Positions 46,018-60,124 of a stretch of 64,000 nucleotides of DNA are shown piece by piece. The translations under genes were made by a program, and so were the position numbers. Position 1 is the stretch's first letter, and each line of letters begins with the position of its first letter. Under the pieces are notes generated by a model. That model was not told the origin of the DNA, ran no database searches, and worked only from the letters and a program-made list of their open reading frames with translations. This DNA is from Kiritimatiellia bacterium (GTDB taxonomy: Bacteria; Verrucomicrobiota; Kiritimatiellia; RFP12; UBA1067): positions 50,314 to 114,313 of the forward strand of contig JAFSMR010000006.1 of NCBI GenBank assembly GCA_017447805.1, read 5' to 3'.

Positions 46018-46262
46018 GCCTTCACCACCTTTATCGCATAAGGTTCAGGACAATTGTAGAAACATATTCCACATCCTATGCAGCCAAACCCGACATATCC
46101 GACAGGTTTAATGCCCATAGAATTGAGCGTAGTTTTTATTTCTAGACACTTCCTGGGGCACGCCGCAACACATCTGCCGCAGCCTTTGCAGGAATCTTCT
46201 TCAATCTCTGGATGACTTTCCAATTTCTGACCTTCTTCCAATAATACTCCACCCGCGCCCAT
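46014..46262 (-). CDS. 2x[4Fe-4S] ferredoxin (oxidoreductase delta subunit)
   Basis: 82 aa. CKGCGRCVAACP and CIGCGICFYNCP. Confidence 0.8.
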   Translation of the reverse strand: MGAGGVLLEEGQKLESHPEIEEDSCKGCGRCVAACPRKCLEIKTTLNSMGIKPVGYVGFGCIGCGICFYNCPEPYAIKVVKA

Positions 46263-46282
46263 ATTGTGCGCAAGTGCCGCAT

Positions 46283-46291
46283 ATTATAGCA
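46283..46291 (-). promoter_or_regulatory. extended -10 element TGcTATAAT upstream of the oxidoreductase operon
   Basis: Minus strand TGCTATAAT, then a 20-nt interval without SD before the ATG at 46262. Confidence 0.5.
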
Positions 46292-46346
46292 TTTTTTCTT
46301 CATTTCCGCAAGTAGCCGCAGGTGCCCTGAACGGCGCGCTTGCGCG

Positions 46347-47210
46347 CTAGATAGTCAGTAAAATCACGCCGGCTAGAATTGCCGTTAGCGCTAGACCATT
46401 TCGCCAAAGATTGCGCTCTGCAAAAATCGCCCCGCCGATTATAAACGTACCAATCGTGCTCGTCCGGCGAATCGTCGAAATTATCGATATCCTGGCGTCG
46501 CTATATGATATTGCTGTGAAATACAGAAAATCGCTAAGCGCGAGCAATATGCCGACAGCTGGAATCGTCACACGCCATTTTAGAGGAGTAGAATCGAATT
46601 TACGGGCAATGAGGCAAGCTATCAGGTATATGACGCACATCCCGCCCATGAACCAAAACAGCACGGTAAGCGGCGGGATCGAGAGCTTTTGCAGCAGAAG
46701 TTTATCATATAGCGCGCTTGCAGAACCAAAGAGCGTAGCGAGAATCGCCAAGATTATGGATGGTGTTTTAAGCGAAAACCCCTCGCGCTTTGTCGCAAAC
46801 GAAAATGCTATGCAACCGGCAAAAGTAATCGCGAACCCGGCCGTCTGCAAGGCTGTAGGCCACTCGCTCAAGAACAGAATCGCAACAAGAGTTGTCCAAA
46901 TCGGGCCAGTCGCGCGAATGGGCCCCATAATCGTAACAGGCAAAGTTTTTAGCGCCCAATATGCGAATGACCAACTAGCCCCGACGATTGCCGATTTTGC
47001 TGCGAGGAGCAGAAAAGTCTTCGTCCCGATTGCCATTGTCGCACCAAGATCTCCGCGAAAGGCGAGGACGGCGAGCACCGACAAAAAGCCGCTAGCGCTC
47101 GTCATCAAGAGAACTTCGAACGCGCGATTGCCGCTTACGCTATGCTTTTTGCAGATATCATATAGCGAGAGTGTTACTGCAGATGAGATTATAAATGCTA
47201 GCCAGCCCAT
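46347..47210 (-). CDS. EamA/DMT-family transporter
   Basis: 287 aa with 10 predicted TM helices arranged as two EamA halves. Confidence 0.8.
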   Translation of the reverse strand: MGWLAFIISSAVTLSLYDICKKHSVSGNRAFEVLLMTSASGFLSVLAVLAFRGDLGATMAIGTKTFLLLAAKSAIVGASWSFAYWALKTLPVTIMGPIRATGPIWTTLVAILFLSEWPTALQTAGFAITFAGCIAFSFATKREGFSLKTPSIILAILATLFGSASALYDKLLLQKLSIPPLTVLFWFMGGMCVIYLIACLIARKFDSTPLKWRVTIPAVGILLALSDFLYFTAISYSDARISIISTIRRTSTIGTFIIGGAIFAERNLWRNGLALTAILAGVILLTI

Positions 47211-47289
47211 AACGGCAAACTATTTTACCACATTTTCCGTCCGCAATCAATACCCCGCCGGTGTGTGTGGCGCAGTTTCTTAGCCCTTT

Positions 47290-47500
47290 TGCCTTTCAAC
47301 TTTCAGACTTTTGACTGCGCAGCGAAGCCGCGCGTCAGGTAGGTCATTAGGAATTAGCAGTTAGTAGTTAGTAGTTTTTATTTAATGCGAGAGGCGCTCA
47401 AGGCGCAGAGGTTGTTCGGCTCATCGCCCTGAACATCTGAACTTTCTGAACATCTGAACGCGGCGAAGCCGCCCTGAACGGCGGCGCGGGCGCGAAGCGG
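47290..47500. repeat. mosaic intergenic repeat block L5
   Basis: TAGTAGTTAG words. GCCCTGAACATCTGAACTTTCTGAACATCTGAAC...GCCCTGAACGGCGGCGCGGGCG, the inverse of 56849-56930. Confidence 0.75.
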
Positions 47501-47503
47501 ATG

Positions 47504-48493
47504 TTAGAGCATTTCGGCGAGGATTGGGGCGGCGTGATTGAAAAAGCGTTGCCAGCCTTTGCACAATGTTAGACGATTTCGCGGGCAATCGCCTTTACAT
47601 AGTGCATAAGAAGGGCAGTTTAGGCATTTGGCGCTGAGATTAGAGCGCTTCGCGTTTGCAAAAGTCAGATATTTTGGGCTCTGAAGGATTTCTTGCCATG
47701 AATTTTCCATTATGTTGCCGAGGCGAAGGCTTTTTTCTACGAAGAAATCGCATGGATATACCGCGCCATCGAAATCCACTACCAAATAATGATCGCAAGC
47801 ATCTGAAAACGAACATTGCGTAGGATAGCCGCGAAATAGCGACGAGACGATAGAATCGAAAAGACGAATCGAGATTACACGAGAATCTTCTTTTCGCCAT
47901 TCATCGAAAAGCCTTACGAGAAATTCGCCCCATTCTTCGCCGGAAATCGCAAATTCCGGATAAGGGCCGGTGCATTCTATGTATTGGTGAAAGCGGGTTT
48001 GAAAGTTGTCTCTGAGGAATCTATATAGTCTCTCAGGCTCGGATACATTAGCCTTGGATACGACAGTCAAAAGATTGTAGTCTACATTTGCTTTTTCAAG
48101 AAGTCGAATACCATTTACGGCGTTTTGAAATGATTCGCCGCGCATTTTCTGGTGGAGCTGAGGGGGGCCATCTATTGAAGCGCCGACTAGCCATGAGCCG
48201 CGCGCAAATCGCTCTGCGAAATCTTGTGTGATGAGAGTCGCGTTGGTTTGGATCGAACGAATTATAGGGGCGCTTGAGATGATATCGAAAATGTAACTAG
48301 GCGCCAATAGAGGTTCGCCGCCTTGGAGAGCTATCGACTTTTCCGAAAAGGGCAGTTCGCAATATGAAGAGACTAGTCTTTCGAGAACCTCCTTGCTCAT
48401 AACGCCTCTTTCATGCTCGAGGTAAAAGCAGTATTTGCAAGATAGATTGCAAGCGCTTCCGACTGGCTTCAGGAGTATGGAAAATGGACGCAT
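47504..48493 (-). CDS. radical SAM/SPASM-domain enzyme, anaerobic sulfatase-maturase-like
   Basis: 329 aa. CNLSCKYCFY (CX3CX2C), GGEPLL, C-terminal SPASM CX2CX5CX3C (CLNCPSYALCKGDC). Overall anSME-like pattern. Confidence 0.85.
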   Translation of the reverse strand: MRPFSILLKPVGSACNLSCKYCFYLEHERGVMSKEVLERLVSSYCELPFSEKSIALQGGEPLLAPSYIFDIISSAPIIRSIQTNATLITQDFAERFARGSWLVGASIDGPPQLHQKMRGESFQNAVNGIRLLEKANVDYNLLTVVSKANVSEPERLYRFLRDNFQTRFHQYIECTGPYPEFAISGEEWGEFLVRLFDEWRKEDSRVISIRLFDSIVSSLFRGYPTQCSFSDACDHYLVVDFDGAVYPCDFFVEKSLRLGNIMENSWQEILQSPKYLTFANAKRSNLSAKCLNCPSYALCKGDCPRNRLTLCKGWQRFFNHAAPILAEML

Positions 48494-49896
48494 TATGAGC
48501 GATCTTCCGGCTCTTCTTCCAGGATTATTGCGGCAGATCTGCCACCTGTGGAAGCGACGCCAATAGTTTCCGAGGGGTCGAAGTTATCTGCTATAACGGC
48601 TGCTCTGCGCGGTGAAGAGCTATCCCCCGCGAGCCACGGGCGCGGCTCAGTCAAAAGATATGCGCTTGAGCTGAGATTGGAAAGCTTTTCCATAGGGCGC
48701 TCGGGGACGATTTGAGGCGGAAGGACTTTGTTCTTCAGCGCTAGCGCAACTTTTACCAGCCCTGCGGCCATCGAAGCTTTCATCGTGTGGCCGATATTGC
48801 CTTTTATCGAGCCGATGCCGACGAGCGGGCCGCCGGCGCGGTGCTCGCCCCAGAGTTTTTGGATTGCCGCGACTTCACGCTCTTGGGGGCCGTTTAAACC
48901 CGAGCCATCCGCTTCGATGAGAGAAATGGTTTTGGGCTCGGCGTCGATTCGTTTCATCGCGTTCGAAAAAATCAGCGAACCATCGCCTTCCGGGTTATGC
49001 CCAATAGATACAGAGCGAATTAGGGCATAGATTCTATCGTGGTCGCGAAGGGCATCTTCTCTTCTTTTCAGGACGAAGAACGCCCCGCCTTCGCCGGGGA
49101 TTGTTCCTTCGGCATCTTGCGAGAATGGCTCGAGAGTAGGCTTGGTCGAAAATCTTACGATTCCAGAGAGGCCTTGGAGATATGCGCGGCCTAGCGGCGA
49201 AGTCACGACCCCCGCGAGCACAGTATCTGCATCGCCAGAGCGCAAATCTCTAATGGCATCCATTATTACAGCCGCGCCAGTCAAGTTGCCGGCATCGAGA
49301 ATCGTGGCAGCGCCGCCGAAAGAACATTCGCGGGCAATCCACGAGACGAAGCGAAAGCCGCTGCCTAGAAGGAACGAGGCTGCATTTGGGACAGGGAGCG
49401 ATTCGCGAAGCTTTTCCTTTACTTCTTCAATGGAATTTTCCGGCGCGCTAGGAAAGAAGCGCCGCAAGATATCCATCGTCTGATCCAGAAACGCGGTATG
49501 TTGAAGCCAGTTGACGGTTGAAGCGTTGAAGGGCGGCGCATAGCCTAAGCGGACAGTGCCGCGGCGCATTTCGTGTGCGTGCGGCCGAATCGAGGCGTCT
49601 CCGAGCGCATCGAAGGCCAATTGGGTCGCGAAATAAAGGTCTTGGTTTTCGCCGGCATTTATCTGCCGTGGAAAATTCTGCATCGCTTGCACGCATGAAA
49701 ACAGGTTGCCGAGCTGTCCGATACGCGTTGGGTAAGGGTTGTCGAATAGCTTCTTCGTGCCATAGGGAATTTCAGTATCGGGCCCGGGAACGCTAAGCAT
49801 GTTCTTCGAGCCCATTATTACATTCCAAAGCGCACGAGGATTCGCACATCCGGCGAATCTGCAACTCATACCTACTATAGCTATTGCGCTATTCAT
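48493..49896 (-). CDS. stand-alone ketosynthase-fold protein with degenerate active site
   Basis: 467 aa. Type I PKS KS pattern (IAIVGMSCRF.G, KGNIGH..ASMAAG, ...IILEE). Asn204 replaces the nucleophile Cys (LDAGNLTG versus DTACSSS). Asp330 replaces the first His (EADGSGL versus EAHGTGT). Confidence 0.75.
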   Translation of the reverse strand: MNSAIAIVGMSCRFAGCANPRALWNVIMGSKNMLSVPGPDTEIPYGTKKLFDNPYPTRIGQLGNLFSCVQAMQNFPRQINAGENQDLYFATQLAFDALGDASIRPHAHEMRRGTVRLGYAPPFNASTVNWLQHTAFLDQTMDILRRFFPSAPENSIEEVKEKLRESLPVPNAASFLLGSGFRFVSWIARECSFGGAATILDAGNLTGAAVIMDAIRDLRSGDADTVLAGVVTSPLGRAYLQGLSGIVRFSTKPTLEPFSQDAEGTIPGEGGAFFVLKRREDALRDHDRIYALIRSVSIGHNPEGDGSLIFSNAMKRIDAEPKTISLIEADGSGLNGPQEREVAAIQKLWGEHRAGGPLVGIGSIKGNIGHTMKASMAAGLVKVALALKNKVLPPQIVPERPMEKLSNLSSSAYLLTEPRPWLAGDSSSPRRAAVIADNFDPSETIGVASTGGRSAAIILEEEPEDRS

Positions 49897-49936
49897 GCAA
49901 GCGATGAAGTTGCGGCGTTGAAATCGGGAAGGGGAT

Positions 49937-50030
49937 TGGCGGAGGGAGGGGGATTTGAACCCCCGGTACGAGAGTTAACTCGTACGACGATTTAGCAAAC
50001 CGTTGCCTTCAGCCACTCGGCCATCCCTCC
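49937..50030 (-). tRNA. tRNA-Ser (anticodon GCU), CCA encoded
   Basis: The minus strand folds as a cloverleaf: acceptor GGAGGGA/TCCCTCC, anticodon stem ACGGT/ATCGT with loop TTGCTAA, long variable arm CGTACGAG..CTCGTAC, T arm GGGGG-TTCAAAT-CCCCC, discriminator G plus CCA. Confidence 0.9.
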
Positions 50031-50049
50031 AAATCGTTTAACGCCGCAT

Positions 50050-50058
50050 ATTATATCA
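50050..50058 (-). promoter_or_regulatory. extended -10 element TGaTATAAT upstream of tRNA-Ser
   Basis: The minus strand reads TGATATAAT, 19 nt before the mature tRNA 5' end. Its TGA is also the nagA stop codon. Confidence 0.5.
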
Positions 50059-51213
50059 AATTCTTCTCTCGCCGTCAACGAAGACGCCGACAGTTTTCCA
50101 ATTTTTCTTGTTGAGCATCACGAGGTCGGCGATGTAGCCTTTTTGGACTTTGCCGAGATCTTTGCCCCAACCCTGCTCGATAGCCTGATTCCAAGAAGTA
50201 GTGCGAACGAGGTCCTTGAGAGGTATGCCGGTTACTTCGTGGACATTCTTGAGACCCTTGCCCATCCAAAGAGTCGAGCCCGCGAGGTTGCCGCCCTTGA
50301 CGAGACGAGCCTCGCCGCCTTCGAGCTTTACTTCCAGGCCGCCCATGGAAAACGCGTACCCATCTTTGCAGTGCGAGCATCTGAGCGAATCTGTAATCAT
50401 TTGGATATGTGCGAGATTTCTGCGTGTAAAGATAAGTTTCAGCATATCTGGGCAGAGGTGAATCTTATCGCAGATTACTTCGGTATTGAGGTCTTCAATA
50501 AGGAAGCCAGCGCCGACCATGCCGATTTCGCGGTGATGAAGCGGGGTCATCTGATTGCAGAAATGGGTCATGTGGCGAAGGCCATTTTTATATGCCGGCA
50601 TCAAATCCGCGAGCTTCGCGCCTGTATGGCCGCAGCTGGGGACGACGCCGATGCTGAAGCAATCCTTGGCGAATTTCGCGCCGCCTTCGGTTTCTACGGC
50701 ATACGAAATTTGCTTGACGGGGAAGACCGCGGCGATTTCCTTGACTTCTTTGATCGAAGGCTTGCGCACGAATTCAGGGTTCTGCGCGCCACAGCACTTG
50801 ACATTGATGAACGGCCCTTCGAGGTGAATGCCGGGGGTCTTCGCGTATGGCATTCCGCGCTTGGCGTACTTGCGAAGATTTTCCGCGGCGGTGAGGAGCT
50901 CTTCGTGAGAAACAGTAAGGGTCGTCGGCAAGAATGTAGTTACGCCTTCTTCGAGCTTGCCCTTGGCGATTTCGAAAATCGCTTTAGGATCCGGGTCGCA
51001 GAAATCGTAGGTGTTTGCGCCGTGAGTATGGACATCGATGAAGCCGGGCATTACATAATTGCCTTTGGCGTCAAACGTCTTATCGGTCGGCCTGGATTTC
51101 ACTGCGGTTTTATCGACAGATTTAATGCGCTTGCCTTCAATTACAATTGTTGCGCCTTCCAGATCTAGTGCTGGAGAGATTACATGCGCATTATAAATAA
51201 CTGTTCTTTCCAT
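50056..51213 (-). CDS. nagA: N-acetylglucosamine-6-phosphate deacetylase
   Basis: 385 aa from the internal ATG 51213 (SD AAGGAG upstream). Amidohydrolase motifs GFIDVHTHG, HLEGPF, HCNQMT. Confidence 0.88.
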   Translation of the reverse strand: MERTVIYNAHVISPALDLEGATIVIEGKRIKSVDKTAVKSRPTDKTFDAKGNYVMPGFIDVHTHGANTYDFCDPDPKAIFEIAKGKLEEGVTTFLPTTLTVSHEELLTAAENLRKYAKRGMPYAKTPGIHLEGPFINVKCCGAQNPEFVRKPSIKEVKEIAAVFPVKQISYAVETEGGAKFAKDCFSIGVVPSCGHTGAKLADLMPAYKNGLRHMTHFCNQMTPLHHREIGMVGAGFLIEDLNTEVICDKIHLCPDMLKLIFTRRNLAHIQMITDSLRCSHCKDGYAFSMGGLEVKLEGGEARLVKGGNLAGSTLWMGKGLKNVHEVTGIPLKDLVRTTSWNQAIEQGWGKDLGKVQKGYIADLVMLNKKNWKTVGVFVDGERRI

Positions 51214-51285
51214 TATCGGCTTCTCCTTTTTGGATTGTTTGCCGATATTATACCAAATCTTGCAAATTGGCTCAACGGCCAAATA

Positions 51286-52236
51286 TCATTTTTTCGATTT
51301 TAATATGGCGTATGCTCTGCGGTGGATTATTTCTATATTGTCGAAATATTTGCGCGCGACGGGTTCTAGACCGAGGGCGTTTTTGCAGACCATATAACAA
51401 ACGCCGCCTTTTTTTAGCGCTCTCAGAGCAGTTTCGTAAAAGACTTCGGCGATTCTATATTCACTATAATAAGGCGGATTTCCGGCAAAAAAATCAAAAG
51501 TTTCATCCATTCTCTTTGGCGTGCCGGAATCTGCTAGAATAACTTCTGCATTAATGCCGAGTTGCGAAGCGTTTTTATTCGCCTCTTCGACTGCTCGAGA
51601 ATGTGAATCGACCATCACGAGGTCGATATTTTTTACGGCCGTGGCCACGAGCAGACCTACGAGGCCGCACCCACAGCCCATATCGAGCAAGCGCAGAGTT
51701 TCTTGCGTGCGCGCCTCTTGGAGTTCGCGCGAGATTGTTTCGGCTAGCGCGAGGCCTCCTTCATCCGCTCTTCGATGGCAAAAGCACCCCGGCGCGCTTT
51801 CGAGTTCTATCGGCTTTGCCCCCGGCACGCTTGCAGTCCATTTCGCGGTAAAATTCCTCACTCGCTTGGGGTCGCAAAGTATTTTATCGATTAAATCGTT
51901 TTTGTCGCGCTCTTTGCCGTCGAATTCGAGCATGAAGCGCGGCGGCTTCAGCTCGCCACCTAGACGCAGGCTGATTTCTTGCAGGAGGTCTAGAGAAAGC
52001 TCCGCGCTCATTCTCTTGGGACCGGTCTTGAAATAAATTTTATCCCAATCGCCCTCCGGCAAATGCGGCGAGCAGATTGTTTTTGCGTGGTGGACTTTTT
52101 CAATCGCATGCCGCTCGTAGATATCGAGAGTATGGCATGTCACATCACCTTCGAGAAGGGCGGATGGCTTCTTCTTGCCATGGCGGCCTTTCTCGAATAA
52201 ATCAGATGCGCGGTAGCCTACGAGCAATGTCTTCAT
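51286..52236 (-). CDS. class I SAM-dependent methyltransferase, RsmC/RlmG-like (NPPY type)
   Basis: Start set at ATG 52236; the longer ORF overlaps the gltX 3' end. Motif I LDMGCGCGLVG and motif IV GNPPYY. Confidence 0.72.
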   Translation of the reverse strand: MKTLLVGYRASDLFEKGRHGKKKPSALLEGDVTCHTLDIYERHAIEKVHHAKTICSPHLPEGDWDKIYFKTGPKRMSAELSLDLLQEISLRLGGELKPPRFMLEFDGKERDKNDLIDKILCDPKRVRNFTAKWTASVPGAKPIELESAPGCFCHRRADEGGLALAETISRELQEARTQETLRLLDMGCGCGLVGLLVATAVKNIDLVMVDSHSRAVEEANKNASQLGINAEVILADSGTPKRMDETFDFFAGNPPYYSEYRIAEVFYETALRALKKGGVCYMVCKNALGLEPVARKYFDNIEIIHRRAYAILKSKK

Positions 52237-57022: not shown

Positions 57023-60000
57023 ATGAAAATTACTATGCATACCAAACTGTTGGGGGTAATGGCAAGTGTTCTTGTATCATTATCCGCCGGCGCAGCGACA
57101 AAATATGGCCTTGTTGTCGGCATCAACGACTTCCTGTATCAAAACGATTTGGACGGGTGCGTCACAGATGCAAACAATGTATACAGTCTCTTGACCAATT
57201 ACGGCGGCGGCTGGACGAGTTCGAACATCACGAAGCTTACCGATTCAAAAGCGACGAAGTCCGCGATTTTGAATGCGATTTCTTCGTATGCCAACAAGGC
57301 GGTTTCCGGCGATACATTCATCTATACGCAGTCAAGCCATGGCGGCGAGGGGGTGCTTTGCTGCTATGACGACAATATCTCGGCAACGGAACTTGGAACC
57401 GCACTTAGGAATTTCAAAAGCGGCGTAACAGTCCTTTGCGTAATAGATGCTTGCCATTCCGGCAGCTTGCCCAACAAGGATGCAAACAGCAAAGCTGTCA
57501 GCGGGAAGCTCGATTTCGATTCGTTTATCGATGAAGTAAACCGCACGATCGAAAGCGCGCCAGCGACGAGGGATGGCGTCGCCAGAATTGCGAACACGGA
57601 AATCGGCTGGTGCGTCGCCGCAAGCGCGAGCGAGACATCTGCCGATATGTTCGAATATTACGGCGGTTTATTCTCTTATCCCTTTGTGCAAGGGGCTAAA
57701 TCCGGCTCTGTGGACGCTACCTATTTTTCGTCCCCAAACGGTGACGATCTATCGGTAGGCAACGCCGATGGTTATTGCACGGCAGACGAAGCATTTTACT
57801 ATGCAAAGACTGCGGCGCTCGCGTATGACAATTCTTCTTACAGACAGACGGCTGGGATATACAACGAGAGTGTTTGCAAGAAGGTCGTTTTGTCTACATC
57901 GAATCTTGTTTCGCTCAATACGGCGGCGGATATCGCGCTTAAATTCCGTTCGTACATGTATGATCCTGATTCCAGTCTTTATGTAAAAGGGGCGGGTTGG
58001 TTCGGACAGACGAAGACATCTTACTATGGCAACAGCGCTCTTCAATGCACTCCGCCGGTGCAATACGGGACAGCATGTTTGGATACTACGGTAATCGGAC
58101 CCGGTACGATTTCTTTCATGTGGAAGTCATCGACCAGTGATTACGGTTATTTGAGTTTGTATGTCGATGGCACCGAAGTAGATTGGATTTCAGGCGCTAC
58201 AGGATGGACATCGTGCAGTTACGACATAACAGATTCCGGAACTCATACCATATCTTGGGAGTATGTAAATACTAGTTTTGGATACTATCATGACGATGAT
58301 ATAGATGTTTGGGTTCAAATTTCCGGGTTTGCATTAAGGGACGACTGCGCGTGGATAGATAAGATCAATTGGACAGGTGATGTTCCAATGGAATTAGGCG
58401 ATACGCTAAACTGCGATTATCTTGATTTCGAACTCACGACTTCCGGCGATGTCAATTTAAGCTATGATTCAAACAACGAAGCTCTTAGGATGGCTGTGAG
58501 CGGCGATGGCTCTTATGCAGTTGTATCTACTTCTGTGCAAGGTCCTTGCATTGTAGATTTTGCCTGGGCCGGGTATGCTGCTTCCGGGACCGTTCAAGGA
58601 GGACTCATGATAAATGGTAACGTTGCAGATGTGAGCTCAACGGATGGATCATGGTCATATTCTTCATGGTCCTTGCCGAGTGAATCTACTTATTATCTCG
58701 ATTGGATTGCAATGTCTTCCGGAAGTAGCGCGAATGGTTCTGTAGAACTTGCCGATGTTGTCGTTTGGCCAGGAGTACTCTTTGATGCGAACGGTGGGTC
58801 GGGGTCAGATGTAGACCTATCTTCTCTCAGTGCGAATTCCAGCAACTGCTATTACGATAGTGACGATGGCATAAATTACGCCAAGGCAAAAACGAAGGTT
58901 ACCTTGCCTGGAGAAGATGTGTTTAGCCGCGATGGCTACGATTTTGCCGGTTGGGAGATCGACGGCGTTACATATTCGGCCGGTTCTACTTTCACGATTG
59001 GCTCAAAGCCGGTTACAGTAAAGGCACTTTGGACCGAGCGGGAAGATAGCCTTTTCGAGCTGTATTACGCGACGCGCACGCCAGTTATGGCTAAAGGTGC
59101 ATGGTCTGGCTATATCTTGGATGATTACAACTATGTAATCGGATCTGTTGAAGTAAAATCCGGCGCGTTTAAGAATAGCAAGAGCTCGGTTACATTCTCC
59201 ATTACATTGCGCAACAAGAAGACCGTCAAGGTTAAAGGCACGATGAGCCTTAATCTAAATGGAGGATGGGATTGCGTCGCAGTTGGCAATGGTTTTCTAG
59301 TGCAGGCGAATTTCTTGCATCAGAATGTCTACGGCCTCGTAAATGGCTTCTATTTCGATTGCGCGAGGGATTTCATGTCTGACAAGGATTCCTCCAGCAA
59401 TCAGTTCAAAAACAAGATTAAAGCGGCCAAGAATAACTATGTCTTGAGCGAGTTATCGCATCCCTTGGAAGGTAAGGCCAATCTCGCCAACGGCTTCATT
59501 GGCCTATCGGTAGTAGTCGATGCCAAAGGCAAGACGAAGCTTTCAGGCGCTCTTCCCGACGGCAACAAGGCGAGCGGAAAACTGATGCTTCTTGCAGATT
59601 CTCGCGGCGCATTCTTGCCGCTCTGGACGCAGATAAATTCGAAGAAGGGATTCTTCGGCGGTCAGATTTTCTGGATGGACTACTTTGTCCCGTTAAATAC
59701 GGATTACGGCGATTGGTTTACCCAGCAGTTCTACTCGTTGATAGAATATGATGATTCCAGCAAGCTTTCAGCTTCGAAGCCCGTGAAGAATGGTCTTTAT
59801 AGTTTCTATATGCCATCTTACTACGGATCGTATCCTGCGAGTATCGATGGTTCGGCTGTAGACCAGACGTCGCTGCCATCCTATCTCATGACTACGCTTG
59901 TAATGTTCTCCGGCAATAAATGGGTGGTCGCGAGTAATGATACCGGCAAAATCAAGCTCACATACGTCCCCAAGACAGGTCTTGTCAAGGGTAGCTTTAC

Positions 60001-60124
60001 GATAAGAACACTCAAGAAAAAGCACAAAGTTACCGTCAATGGCGCATATATCAATGGTTGGAGCAACTGCAATGGCTTTATCAAGGGCAAGACTTCGATG
60101 CCGCTGATGATAGGTTTCTATTGA
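57023..60124 (+). CDS. secreted multidomain protein with an N-terminal caspase-fold (peptidase C14) domain
   Basis: 1033 aa with signal peptide. C14 dyad context YTQSSHGG (His) and VIDACHSGSL (Cys). Two lectin/CUB-like beta-sandwich modules (ISFMWKSS...DGTEVDWISG). One Listeria-Bacteroides repeat (FDANGG...GYDFAGW...ALW). Confidence 0.78.
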   Translation: MKITMHTKLLGVMASVLVSLSAGAATKYGLVVGINDFLYQNDLDGCVTDANNVYSLLTNYGGGWTSSNITKLTDSKATKSAILNAISSYANKAVSGDTFIYTQSSHGGEGVLCCYDDNISATELGTALRNFKSGVTVLCVIDACHSGSLPNKDANSKAVSGKLDFDSFIDEVNRTIESAPATRDGVARIANTEIGWCVAASASETSADMFEYYGGLFSYPFVQGAKSGSVDATYFSSPNGDDLSVGNADGYCTADEAFYYAKTAALAYDNSSYRQTAGIYNESVCKKVVLSTSNLVSLNTAADIALKFRSYMYDPDSSLYVKGAGWFGQTKTSYYGNSALQCTPPVQYGTACLDTTVIGPGTISFMWKSSTSDYGYLSLYVDGTEVDWISGATGWTSCSYDITDSGTHTISWEYVNTSFGYYHDDDIDVWVQISGFALRDDCAWIDKINWTGDVPMELGDTLNCDYLDFELTTSGDVNLSYDSNNEALRMAVSGDGSYAVVSTSVQGPCIVDFAWAGYAASGTVQGGLMINGNVADVSSTDGSWSYSSWSLPSESTYYLDWIAMSSGSSANGSVELADVVVWPGVLFDANGGSGSDVDLSSLSANSSNCYYDSDDGINYAKAKTKVTLPGEDVFSRDGYDFAGWEIDGVTYSAGSTFTIGSKPVTVKALWTEREDSLFELYYATRTPVMAKGAWSGYILDDYNYVIGSVEVKSGAFKNSKSSVTFSITLRNKKTVKVKGTMSLNLNGGWDCVAVGNGFLVQANFLHQNVYGLVNGFYFDCARDFMSDKDSSSNQFKNKIKAAKNNYVLSELSHPLEGKANLANGFIGLSVVVDAKGKTKLSGALPDGNKASGKLMLLADSRGAFLPLWTQINSKKGFFGGQIFWMDYFVPLNTDYGDWFTQQFYSLIEYDDSSKLSASKPVKNGLYSFYMPSYYGSYPASIDGSAVDQTSLPSYLMTTLVMFSGNKWVVASNDTGKIKLTYVPKTGLVKGSFTIRTLKKKHKVTVNGAYINGWSNCNGFIKGKTSMPLMIGFY

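Follow-up and report, generated by a model that had tools for sequence, protein, structure and literature searches.

In a 64-kb stretch of DNA from a Kiritimatiellia bacterium of gut or rumen (contig JAFSMR010000006.1; the window, to whose positions all coordinates without a locus number refer), two minus-strand genes that follow a tRNA-Ser gene are joined so tightly that the stop codon of one runs into the start codon of the other. The upstream gene (48493-49896) encodes a 467-aa protein with a ketosynthase (KS) fold, which we call KSL, for ketosynthase-like, and the downstream gene (47504-48493) encodes a 329-aa radical SAM/SPASM protein; the junction reads GATCGCTCATAATGCGTCC, in which the TAA of KSL and the ATG of the radical SAM gene overlap as TAATG (48491..48495) and have one base, 48493, in common. 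A preliminary description, made from the sequence of the window, had placed and characterised both open reading frames (ORFs), the tRNA and the overlap correctly, as ORF, ARAGORN and Pfam checks showed, and had offered several meanings for the arrangement, ranging from a new modification system of a KS pseudoenzyme and a SPASM maturase to a gene for anaerobic sulfatase-maturating enzyme (anSME) fortuitously fused into an operon. It is the last of these that the data favour: the pair is probably a chance joining of two unrelated genes, brought into one transcription unit in this species only, a reading that we hold, taken as a whole, with reasonable though not high confidence.

The comparisons behind this reading were made from three viewpoints. 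The scan of one genome per species yielded 38 loci with a KSL orthologue, 37 of them informative (L-numbers denote loci of relatives), and in none of the 37 did anything homologous to the radical SAM protein of the window lie near KSL. Likewise, no anSME was near BIG, our name for the ~1,100-aa protein that is the usual partner of KSL, in any of 80 BIG-centred metagenome loci, and no KSL was near the anSME orthologues of other species in six distinct contexts. The neighbours in those six contexts were a sulfatase; GH95/GH92; GH97 and an ABC permease; a DNA ligase and an RND pump; RuvB; and a PBP. The sulfatase gene and the anSME gene beside it are divergent, and other orthologues are among glycoside hydrolases. 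The KSL-anSME arrangement is present in all 17 contigs with an identical KSL, three of which are from three different samples, and was found nowhere else. By the neighbourhood test that the preliminary description had set, the proposed system of a KS pseudoenzyme and a SPASM maturase fails and is not supported, the two genes being neighbours in none of these loci of other species; the analysis left standing both the description of KSL as a pseudo-ketosynthase and the likeness of its neighbour to anSMEs. In L141, the locus of the closest foreign anSME, the gene upstream of it is truncated and is not a KSL, and a literature search for a ketosynthase/anSME link, or for a cassette of KS, phosphopantetheinyl transferase (PPTase) and aminomutase in Kiritimatiellia, found nothing relevant.

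The result is deflationary for the proposed modification system, and a tight overlap alone is no ground for reading functional coupling. The greater interest lies instead in the uncharacterised, class-wide and strongly conserved cassette to which KSL belongs, in which the nucleophiles of the KS and the acyltransferase (AT) have been lost and a fused PPTase is intact. Its deep branches have a link to PanB, its gut lineages one to a truncated KamA-like radical SAM protein.

A degenerate ketosynthase and its usual partners

Both ketosynthase models of Pfam match KSL (ketoacyl-synt N PF00109, E 4e-22; C PF02801, E 2e-18), no AT or acyl carrier protein (ACP) domain was found in it by Pfam, and its phmmer matches to ketosynthases in the PDB reach E 2e-41. 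In the phmmer alignments to solved ketosynthases of type I polyketide synthases (PKSs), N204 (codon 49285-49287) falls on the nucleophilic Cys (DTACS vs DAGNL), D330 (48907-48909) on the first His (EAHGTG vs EADGSG) and H370 (48787-48789) on the second His (NIGH). The Cys-His-His triad, the object of this alignment check, is not intact in KSL, which has Asn204, Asp330 and His370, and the family columns agree with the alignments; the earlier diagnosis of a pseudo-ketosynthase with Cys replaced by Asn, the first His replaced by Asp and the second His kept was thus correct. Asn204 itself is no conserved or meaningful replacement, as the nucleophile column varies freely: among the relatives it is occupied by N, M, V, I, L or A, and by Cys in 0/128, while the Asp at 330 is present in 123/128 and the His at 370 in 124/125. 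A further 61 metagenomic copies of KSL are likewise without Cys at this column, and a deep-branching group (41-48% identity) has kept both His residues, the nucleophile site being occupied by Ala, Gly, Thr or Ser. Because the whole family is without the nucleophile, KSL is predicted to be incapable of condensation, a chemistry that, judging from these sequences, the family gave up long ago. An AlphaFold model of KSL (37 close homologues) was of low confidence (pLDDT 53, pTM 0.59), and although the top 50 PDB matches found with it by Foldseek were all PKS ketosynthases (E about 1e-20, TM about 0.55), we take the model to support the coarse KS fold only and nothing at residue level.

Loss of the triad has not been followed by decay. 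KSL orthologues were found in 38 species representatives at 52-81% identity, and in a test that excluded L032 the window's KSL was changed at 2 of 156 family-invariant columns and had kept 154 (the leave-one-out control mean was 1.2%). Its dN/dS relative to these relatives is about 0.08, a ratio that is approximate because dS is saturated. KSL is therefore under purifying selection. A representative search returned mostly giant multi-KS synthases and only three useful stand-alone distant relatives. As a side observation, the species with the most similar KSL (L004-L008) have a GC content of 58-65% vs 49% for the window, a large compositional shift within a narrow clade.

What KSL is usually coupled to is BIG, which, as counted by tblastn, follows it with an ATGA or GTGA overlap in 28 of the 37 informative loci; a KamA-family radical SAM gene (256-305 aa) then follows in 22 of those 28, and of 70 loci inspected from the side of BIG, 61 have KSL directly upstream. 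L023:6001-11478 is a typical example of the cassette, whose genes are linked by stop/start overlaps and which is represented by L007, L009-L028, L030, L032, L035, L036, L039-L041 and L050-L129. The domains of BIG are, in order, a KS-AT linker, Acyl_transf_1, a weak PS-DH match and a C-terminal ACPS-type PPTase. Its AT has the motif G[F/C/L][S/A/V/G]GG instead of GHSxG, with drift between lineages, and its PPTase motifs VGVDVE and FWCAKEAVSKALGTG are invariant. No ketoreductase (KR) was detected in KSL and BIG, and no active KS, AT or ACP was found encoded in the cassette. The gene directly upstream of KSL in 13/13 deep-branching loci (L109, L112, L113, L115, L116, L118, L119 and L121-L126, e.g., L124:2754-3560) is that of PanB, the ketopantoate hydroxymethyltransferase that is the first enzyme of pantothenate synthesis, and this position suggests that the cassette is tied to phosphopantetheine metabolism, with the PPTase as its working part.

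Taken together, KSL and BIG look like one iterative type I synthase that was cut at the boundary of KS and linker and emptied of its KS and AT chemistry, and their best family-level matches are to PfaA-type and type I PKS models. KSL would supply the N-terminal KS part of a pseudo-module that derives from a PKS and has been split, and the N-terminal KS-AT linker of BIG would correspond to the part that packs against the KS in real synthases. From the coupling of KSL to a protein with this linker, a drifting AT and an invariant PPTase, we infer that KSL is a subunit, structural or ligand-binding, of a PPTase-bearing complex with BIG that is tied to phosphopantetheine and carrier-protein metabolism, BIG being presumably encoded elsewhere in the genome of the window's organism.

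Precedents exist for parts of this picture. Like KSL, the chain-length factors (KS-beta) and the KSQ loading domains have a KS fold with the nucleophile replaced, form no acyl-enzyme intermediate and have a partner or accessory role, but they have a conserved Gln and both His residues and are decarboxylases beside an active KS or ACP, whereas in the KSL family that column is free to vary, Asp replaces the first His, and there is no active KS, AT or ACP alongside. The KS0 domains of trans-AT PKSs, too, have lost condensation and been retained in the assembly. KS0 domains keep the Cys and lose the His of HGTGT; in KSL the Cys is gone too, and the protein stands alone. The order of KS, linker, AT, dehydratase (DH)-like domain and PPTase in KSL and BIG is similar to that in iterative type I PKSs with a C-terminal PPTase, e.g., the enediyne synthases (KS-AT-ACP-KR-DH-PPTase), and in the polyunsaturated fatty acid (PUFA) synthases. 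Unlike these, KSL and BIG are the products of two genes, have lost the KS and AT nucleophiles, show no conserved ACP serine and no detectable KR, and often have a KamA-family gene after them and, in deep branches, PanB before them.

A bolder proposal, to which we give limited credence, is that KSL and BIG are an exapted housekeeping machine for phosphopantetheinyl transfer and carrier-protein handling, in which the PPTase would be the sole catalyst and the dead KS and AT a binding platform. It would explain why KSL is near-universal, single-copy and constrained, why PanB is linked to the cassette, and why KSL survives where the operon is broken; under it, and with the same limited credence for the two jointly, the organism's sole anSME would have been placed on the same tRNA-driven transcript here. 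Were it true that the cassette activates carrier proteins, it would exemplify clearly how an assembly-line synthase can be reused as a scaffold, and the routine mis-scoring of these genomes as polyketide producers would be corrected; the public records currently name the cassette proteins "polyketide synthase" or "PPTase superfamily protein".

Two side observations touch the cassette. Its KamA-like radical SAM protein has sub-threshold matches to EpmB (142-176 bits), and 3 kb from a KSL-less BIG there is a 290-aa class II tRNA-synthetase-like gene (PF00152; L130:12395-13267, minus strand) of about the size of EpmA/PoxA; a link of the cassette to lysylation of elongation factor P is conceivable. 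In addition, syntenic KSL loci of the Kiritimatiellia type (60-71% identity) were present in 'cleanbin' metagenome-assembled genomes labelled Faecalibacterium, Barnesiella, Gemmiger, Methanomethylophilaceae and Alistipes (L010, L014, L016, L033, L034, L037), contigs that are probably mis-binned.

In the window BIG is absent, and the anSME gene occupies its usual position. BIG is missing downstream in 9 of the 37 KSL loci, and KSL is missing upstream in 9 of the 70 BIG loci, where the gene before BIG is MurG-like, LpxD-like or unknown; KSL and BIG can thus be separated. At least two or three separate clades of the KSL tree show the BIG-less state, and the nearest relatives of the window's KSL include BIG-less (L004-L006, L008) and BIG-positive (L007) loci. 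BIG without KSL was found in three species of the sub-clade. A screen by amino-acid composition pointed to the P0395/P0511 cluster, whose 19-kb contigs (L138/L139) have the order epimerase, epimerase, BIG, KamA-like radical SAM gene, and neither KSL nor an anSME gene. The tetranucleotide correlation of L138/L139 with the window is r = 0.974-0.975, within the range of the window against itself (0.937-0.977), vs 0.856 or less for any other locus, and their GC content is 50.8% vs 49.3% for the window. These composition-matched contigs suggest that in the window's species the cassette was probably split, rather than BIG lost, and that the anSME gene landed behind KSL. Another of these BIG homologues, P0399, from 14 contigs of the window's sequencing projects, was rejected as that of the window's organism (~62% GC, tetranucleotide correlation ~0.61).

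The synteny of NagA, tRNA-Ser and KSL is common to the window and its relatives. In the sub-clade, KSL would have stayed at this ancestral site with BIG and the KamA-like radical SAM gene elsewhere, and in this species only the anSME gene would have come to sit directly behind KSL. A hint of its earlier position is given by L047:989-7041, in which an anSME orthologue is about 3.7 kb downstream of a GltX gene that shares 81% identity with that of the window. GltX is upstream of the anSME gene at a similar distance in the window too, so that the anSME gene may have had GltX in its vicinity before it came to abut KSL.

The radical SAM/SPASM protein as a probable anSME

The 329-aa protein is most likely the organism's anaerobic sulfatase-maturating enzyme. 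It has the Pfam domains Radical_SAM (5e-15) and SPASM (4e-13), and its top NCBIfam model is that of anSME (TIGR03942), with 274.5 bits and an E-value of 1e-81; the best of the other SPASM families, including the peptide-maturase models, score at most 140 bits, i.e., ~135 bits below anSME. Residues 1-323 align with the Clostridium perfringens anSME (anSMEcpe; 4K37) at E 2e-48 and 36% identity. The preliminary description had likened the protein to anSMEs and found it short, and both points were upheld: the alignment to 4K37 is end-to-end, the length is 329 vs 363-412 aa, and the alignment shows that the difference is one of loops trimmed relative to anSMEcpe.

The residue mapping was as close. 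D249, Y24 and Q57 align with Asp277, Tyr24 and Gln64 of anSMEcpe, which we take to be the active-site residues next to the substrate. The CX3CX2C cysteines of the radical SAM cluster (C15/C19/C22) match C15, C19 and C22 of anSMEcpe; those of auxiliary cluster I (C227, C233, C248, C303) fall on C255, C261, C276 and C330, and those of auxiliary cluster II (C290, C293, C299, C311) on C317, C320, C326 and C348. All 11 cluster cysteines, three of the radical SAM cluster and eight auxiliary, have thus been kept, the ligand roles being those in anSMEcpe (PMC5715301). By homology, the enzyme would be the clade's ordinary anSME, in which a 5'-deoxyadenosyl radical oxidises the Cys or Ser of C/S-x-P-x-R to formylglycine and two auxiliary [4Fe-4S] clusters carry the electron away.

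Proteins of ~330-340 aa at 55-63% identity to it are abundant in Kiritimatiellia, and orthologues encoded far from KSL have the same range of scores and the same ligands. It resembles the known anSMEs (anSMEcpe, AtsB, ChuR; TIGR03942) in its CX3CX2C motif, its full SPASM domain with eight Cys, its equivalents of D277, Y24 and Q64 and its end-to-end alignment, and also in that an anSME is a stand-alone gene in this sulfatase-rich order; cultured Kiritimatiellales have a single anSME for hundreds of sulfatases (PMC6388578). It differs from them in its length, its shortened loops, a score below the model's cutoff and, here, its coupling to a KS-like gene. On its scores and ligands, the protein would have its place among bona fide sulfatase maturases. 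The short anSMEs of Kiritimatiellia fall under the NCBIfam cutoff, so that in the sulfatase-rich bacteria of gut and rumen they probably go under-annotated.

Two other roles were considered and rejected. A SPASM maturase of peptides that are made on ribosomes and modified afterwards (RiPPs) would be expected among the peptide-maturase models, whose scores (at most 140 vs 274.5 bits) are given above, and no credible small ORF was found flanking the radical SAM gene or in the 293-nt gap beyond it (47211..47503). KSL as the substrate of the anSME was set aside in that its sole loose match to C/S-x-P/A-x-R, SSPRR at 427, is not conserved: most orthologues have Ala as the target residue.

Weighing the alternatives

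Several observations tell against a chance joining of an ordinary anSME gene to a non-catalytic KSL. The one-base stop/start overlap is such as a functional pair would have, and is stable over the 17 contigs of the species; the radical SAM protein, at 274.5 bits, is under the curated TIGR03942 cutoff of 349.45; and the 64-kb window has no sulfatase genes, which are present in the related loci L031, L044 and L134. In the motif flanks of KSL (DAG-x-LTG, EADGSG, KGNIGH), conservation goes beyond what a pure scaffold requires, the structure model of KSL is poor (pLDDT 53), and no conserved carrier-protein serine is visible in BIG. Finally, it is by composition alone that L138/L139 are placed in the window's species, and with them the location of its BIG. 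The overlap is the strongest card of a true pair newly arisen here, in which KSL would be a scaffold, chaperone or substrate of the radical SAM enzyme or the two would jointly modify a lipid or peptide; such a pair would account for a TAATG translational-coupling junction, for its fixation in 17/17 contigs and for a KSL that is without its adjacent usual partner in this sub-clade. We consider it very improbable, as co-occurrence in other lineages is missing from all three independent viewpoints (KSL, BIG and anSME loci), KSL keeps 154 of the 156 family-invariant residues and so has not visibly shifted in function, SSPRR at 427 is not conserved as an anSME target, and the radical SAM protein is the same in score and ligands as orthologues far from any KSL. 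That KSL acquired a role in sulfatase maturation in this species is, in our estimate, just as remote. A diverged radical SAM/SPASM enzyme that acts on some other peptide, lipid or cofactor, and is no sulfatase maturase, is somewhat less far-fetched but still unlikely. The sub-cutoff score, a length about 40 residues short of the characterised anSMEs, a window without a sulfatase and orthologue contexts that are mostly not beside sulfatases would all fit it. The score is a clade-wide trait, since five Kiritimatiellia orthologues, including one beside a sulfatase gene, also fall short (238-270 bits on TIGR03942). Against this alternative there are the lead of ~135 bits of the anSME models over every other SPASM family, the conservation of all cluster ligands and of the D277, Y24 and Q64 equivalents, the lack of a precursor-like flanking ORF, the orthologue divergently beside a sulfatase and others among glycoside hydrolases, and the norm of single stand-alone anSME genes in this sulfatase-rich order.

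More room must be left for catalysis by KSL, although we still doubt it: alone or in the complex with BIG, KSL may use the invariant Asp330, His370 and Lys365 for a non-condensing reaction, e.g., to decarboxylate or hydrolyse an acyl or malonyl thioester. The conservation of the flanks beyond the needs of a scaffold makes residual catalysis or ligand binding possible; the flanks are nearly invariant and the nucleophile column alone drifts, in the deep branches both His residues are present together with Ala, Gly, Thr or Ser in place of the nucleophile, and KSL is still constrained where BIG is not adjacent. Both His residues without the Cys permit malonyl decarboxylation in KSQ/CLF-type and Cys-mutant ketosynthases. 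In the gut clade, though, Asp takes the place of the first His (123/128), a residue that decarboxylation by ketosynthases requires, the cassette has no carrier protein or active AT to supply a substrate, and the flank motifs are also structural in the thiolase fold. By comparison, the notion that KSL is the decaying remnant of a PKS gene broken when the cassette was split is effectively refuted: its catalytic Cys and one His are lost and its partner genes are absent from the window, but the loss of the nucleophile is family-wide and ancient, the ORF is intact, and neither the dN/dS of about 0.08 nor the change of only 2 of 156 invariant columns is that of a gene in decay. Thus the joining of two unrelated genes, a constrained pseudo-ketosynthase and an ordinary anSME, remains the explanation that we prefer.

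Transcription and surroundings of the unit

The tRNA upstream of KSL, tRNA-Ser(GCT) (49937-50030, minus strand as is the whole unit), was identified by ARAGORN and has an Rfam tRNA score of 56 bits. Within 46200-51600 the best sigma-70-like site, TTGACG-17 nt-TATAAT with 11/12 matches and a TG-extended -10, is just upstream of it (50078-50050) and overlaps the 3' end of a NagA-like amidohydrolase gene (50056-51282, minus strand). The preliminary description had seen no promoter in the 40-nt spacer between tRNA and KSL (49897..49936, minus strand), and none was found there; the spacer also has no obvious Shine-Dalgarno sequence, and there is no terminator-like site between tRNA and KSL on the minus strand. 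For this species it is thus plausible, as had been suggested, that the pair rides on the transcript of the tRNA: the promoter-like site, the missing terminator and the recurrent adjacency of tRNA and KSL all speak for it, and tRNA, KSL and anSME gene would probably be co-transcribed from the site before tRNA-Ser as a tRNA-mRNA co-transcript.

At least nine other species (L012, L020, L022, L023, L025, L032, L038, L039, L041) have the same tRNA-Ser(GCT) directly upstream of their KSL, and the linkage of tRNA-Ser to KSL is ancestral, with the anSME gene the sole newcomer. The spacer is 34 nt with a TATAAT box in five of them (L020, L023, L025, L039, L041) and, in two others, only 6 nt between the 3' end of the tRNA and the start codon of KSL (L012:5994-6001, L038:1626-1633), a distance which implies a tRNA-mRNA co-transcript from which, after tRNA processing, the KSL mRNA would emerge essentially leaderless. 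The thrU-tyrU-glyT-thrT-tufB operon of Escherichia coli is such a co-transcript. As there, a promoter-bearing tRNA gene is directly before protein genes in the window, with no promoter or terminator between; unlike there, the co-transcript of the window is a prediction from sequence, and in some relatives the spacer contains a TATAAT box.

Downstream, the unit is closed by a gap of 293 nt (47211..47503, minus strand), beyond which there is a gene for an EamA-family transporter; a promoter-like site in the gap, TTGATT-17 nt-TAAAAT with TG (47222-47250, minus strand), would serve that gene. The gap also contains three short tandem repeats (47293-47459), CTTTCAGA x2.5, TTAGTAG x3.3 and CTGAACAT x3.8. 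The GC content is 49% for the window, 55% for KSL and 46.5% for the anSME gene. Apart from the tRNA, no RNA element was found in the flanks by Rfam; a sub-threshold match to the plastid psbI-rps4 3'UTR family (49940-49995, plus strand; 53.5 bits vs a gathering score of 68) almost certainly just reflects tRNA-Ser in antisense. Elsewhere in the window, a GH106 glycoside hydrolase gene adjoins the gene (57023-60124, plus strand) for a protein of 1,033 aa that has a caspase-like Peptidase_C14 domain.

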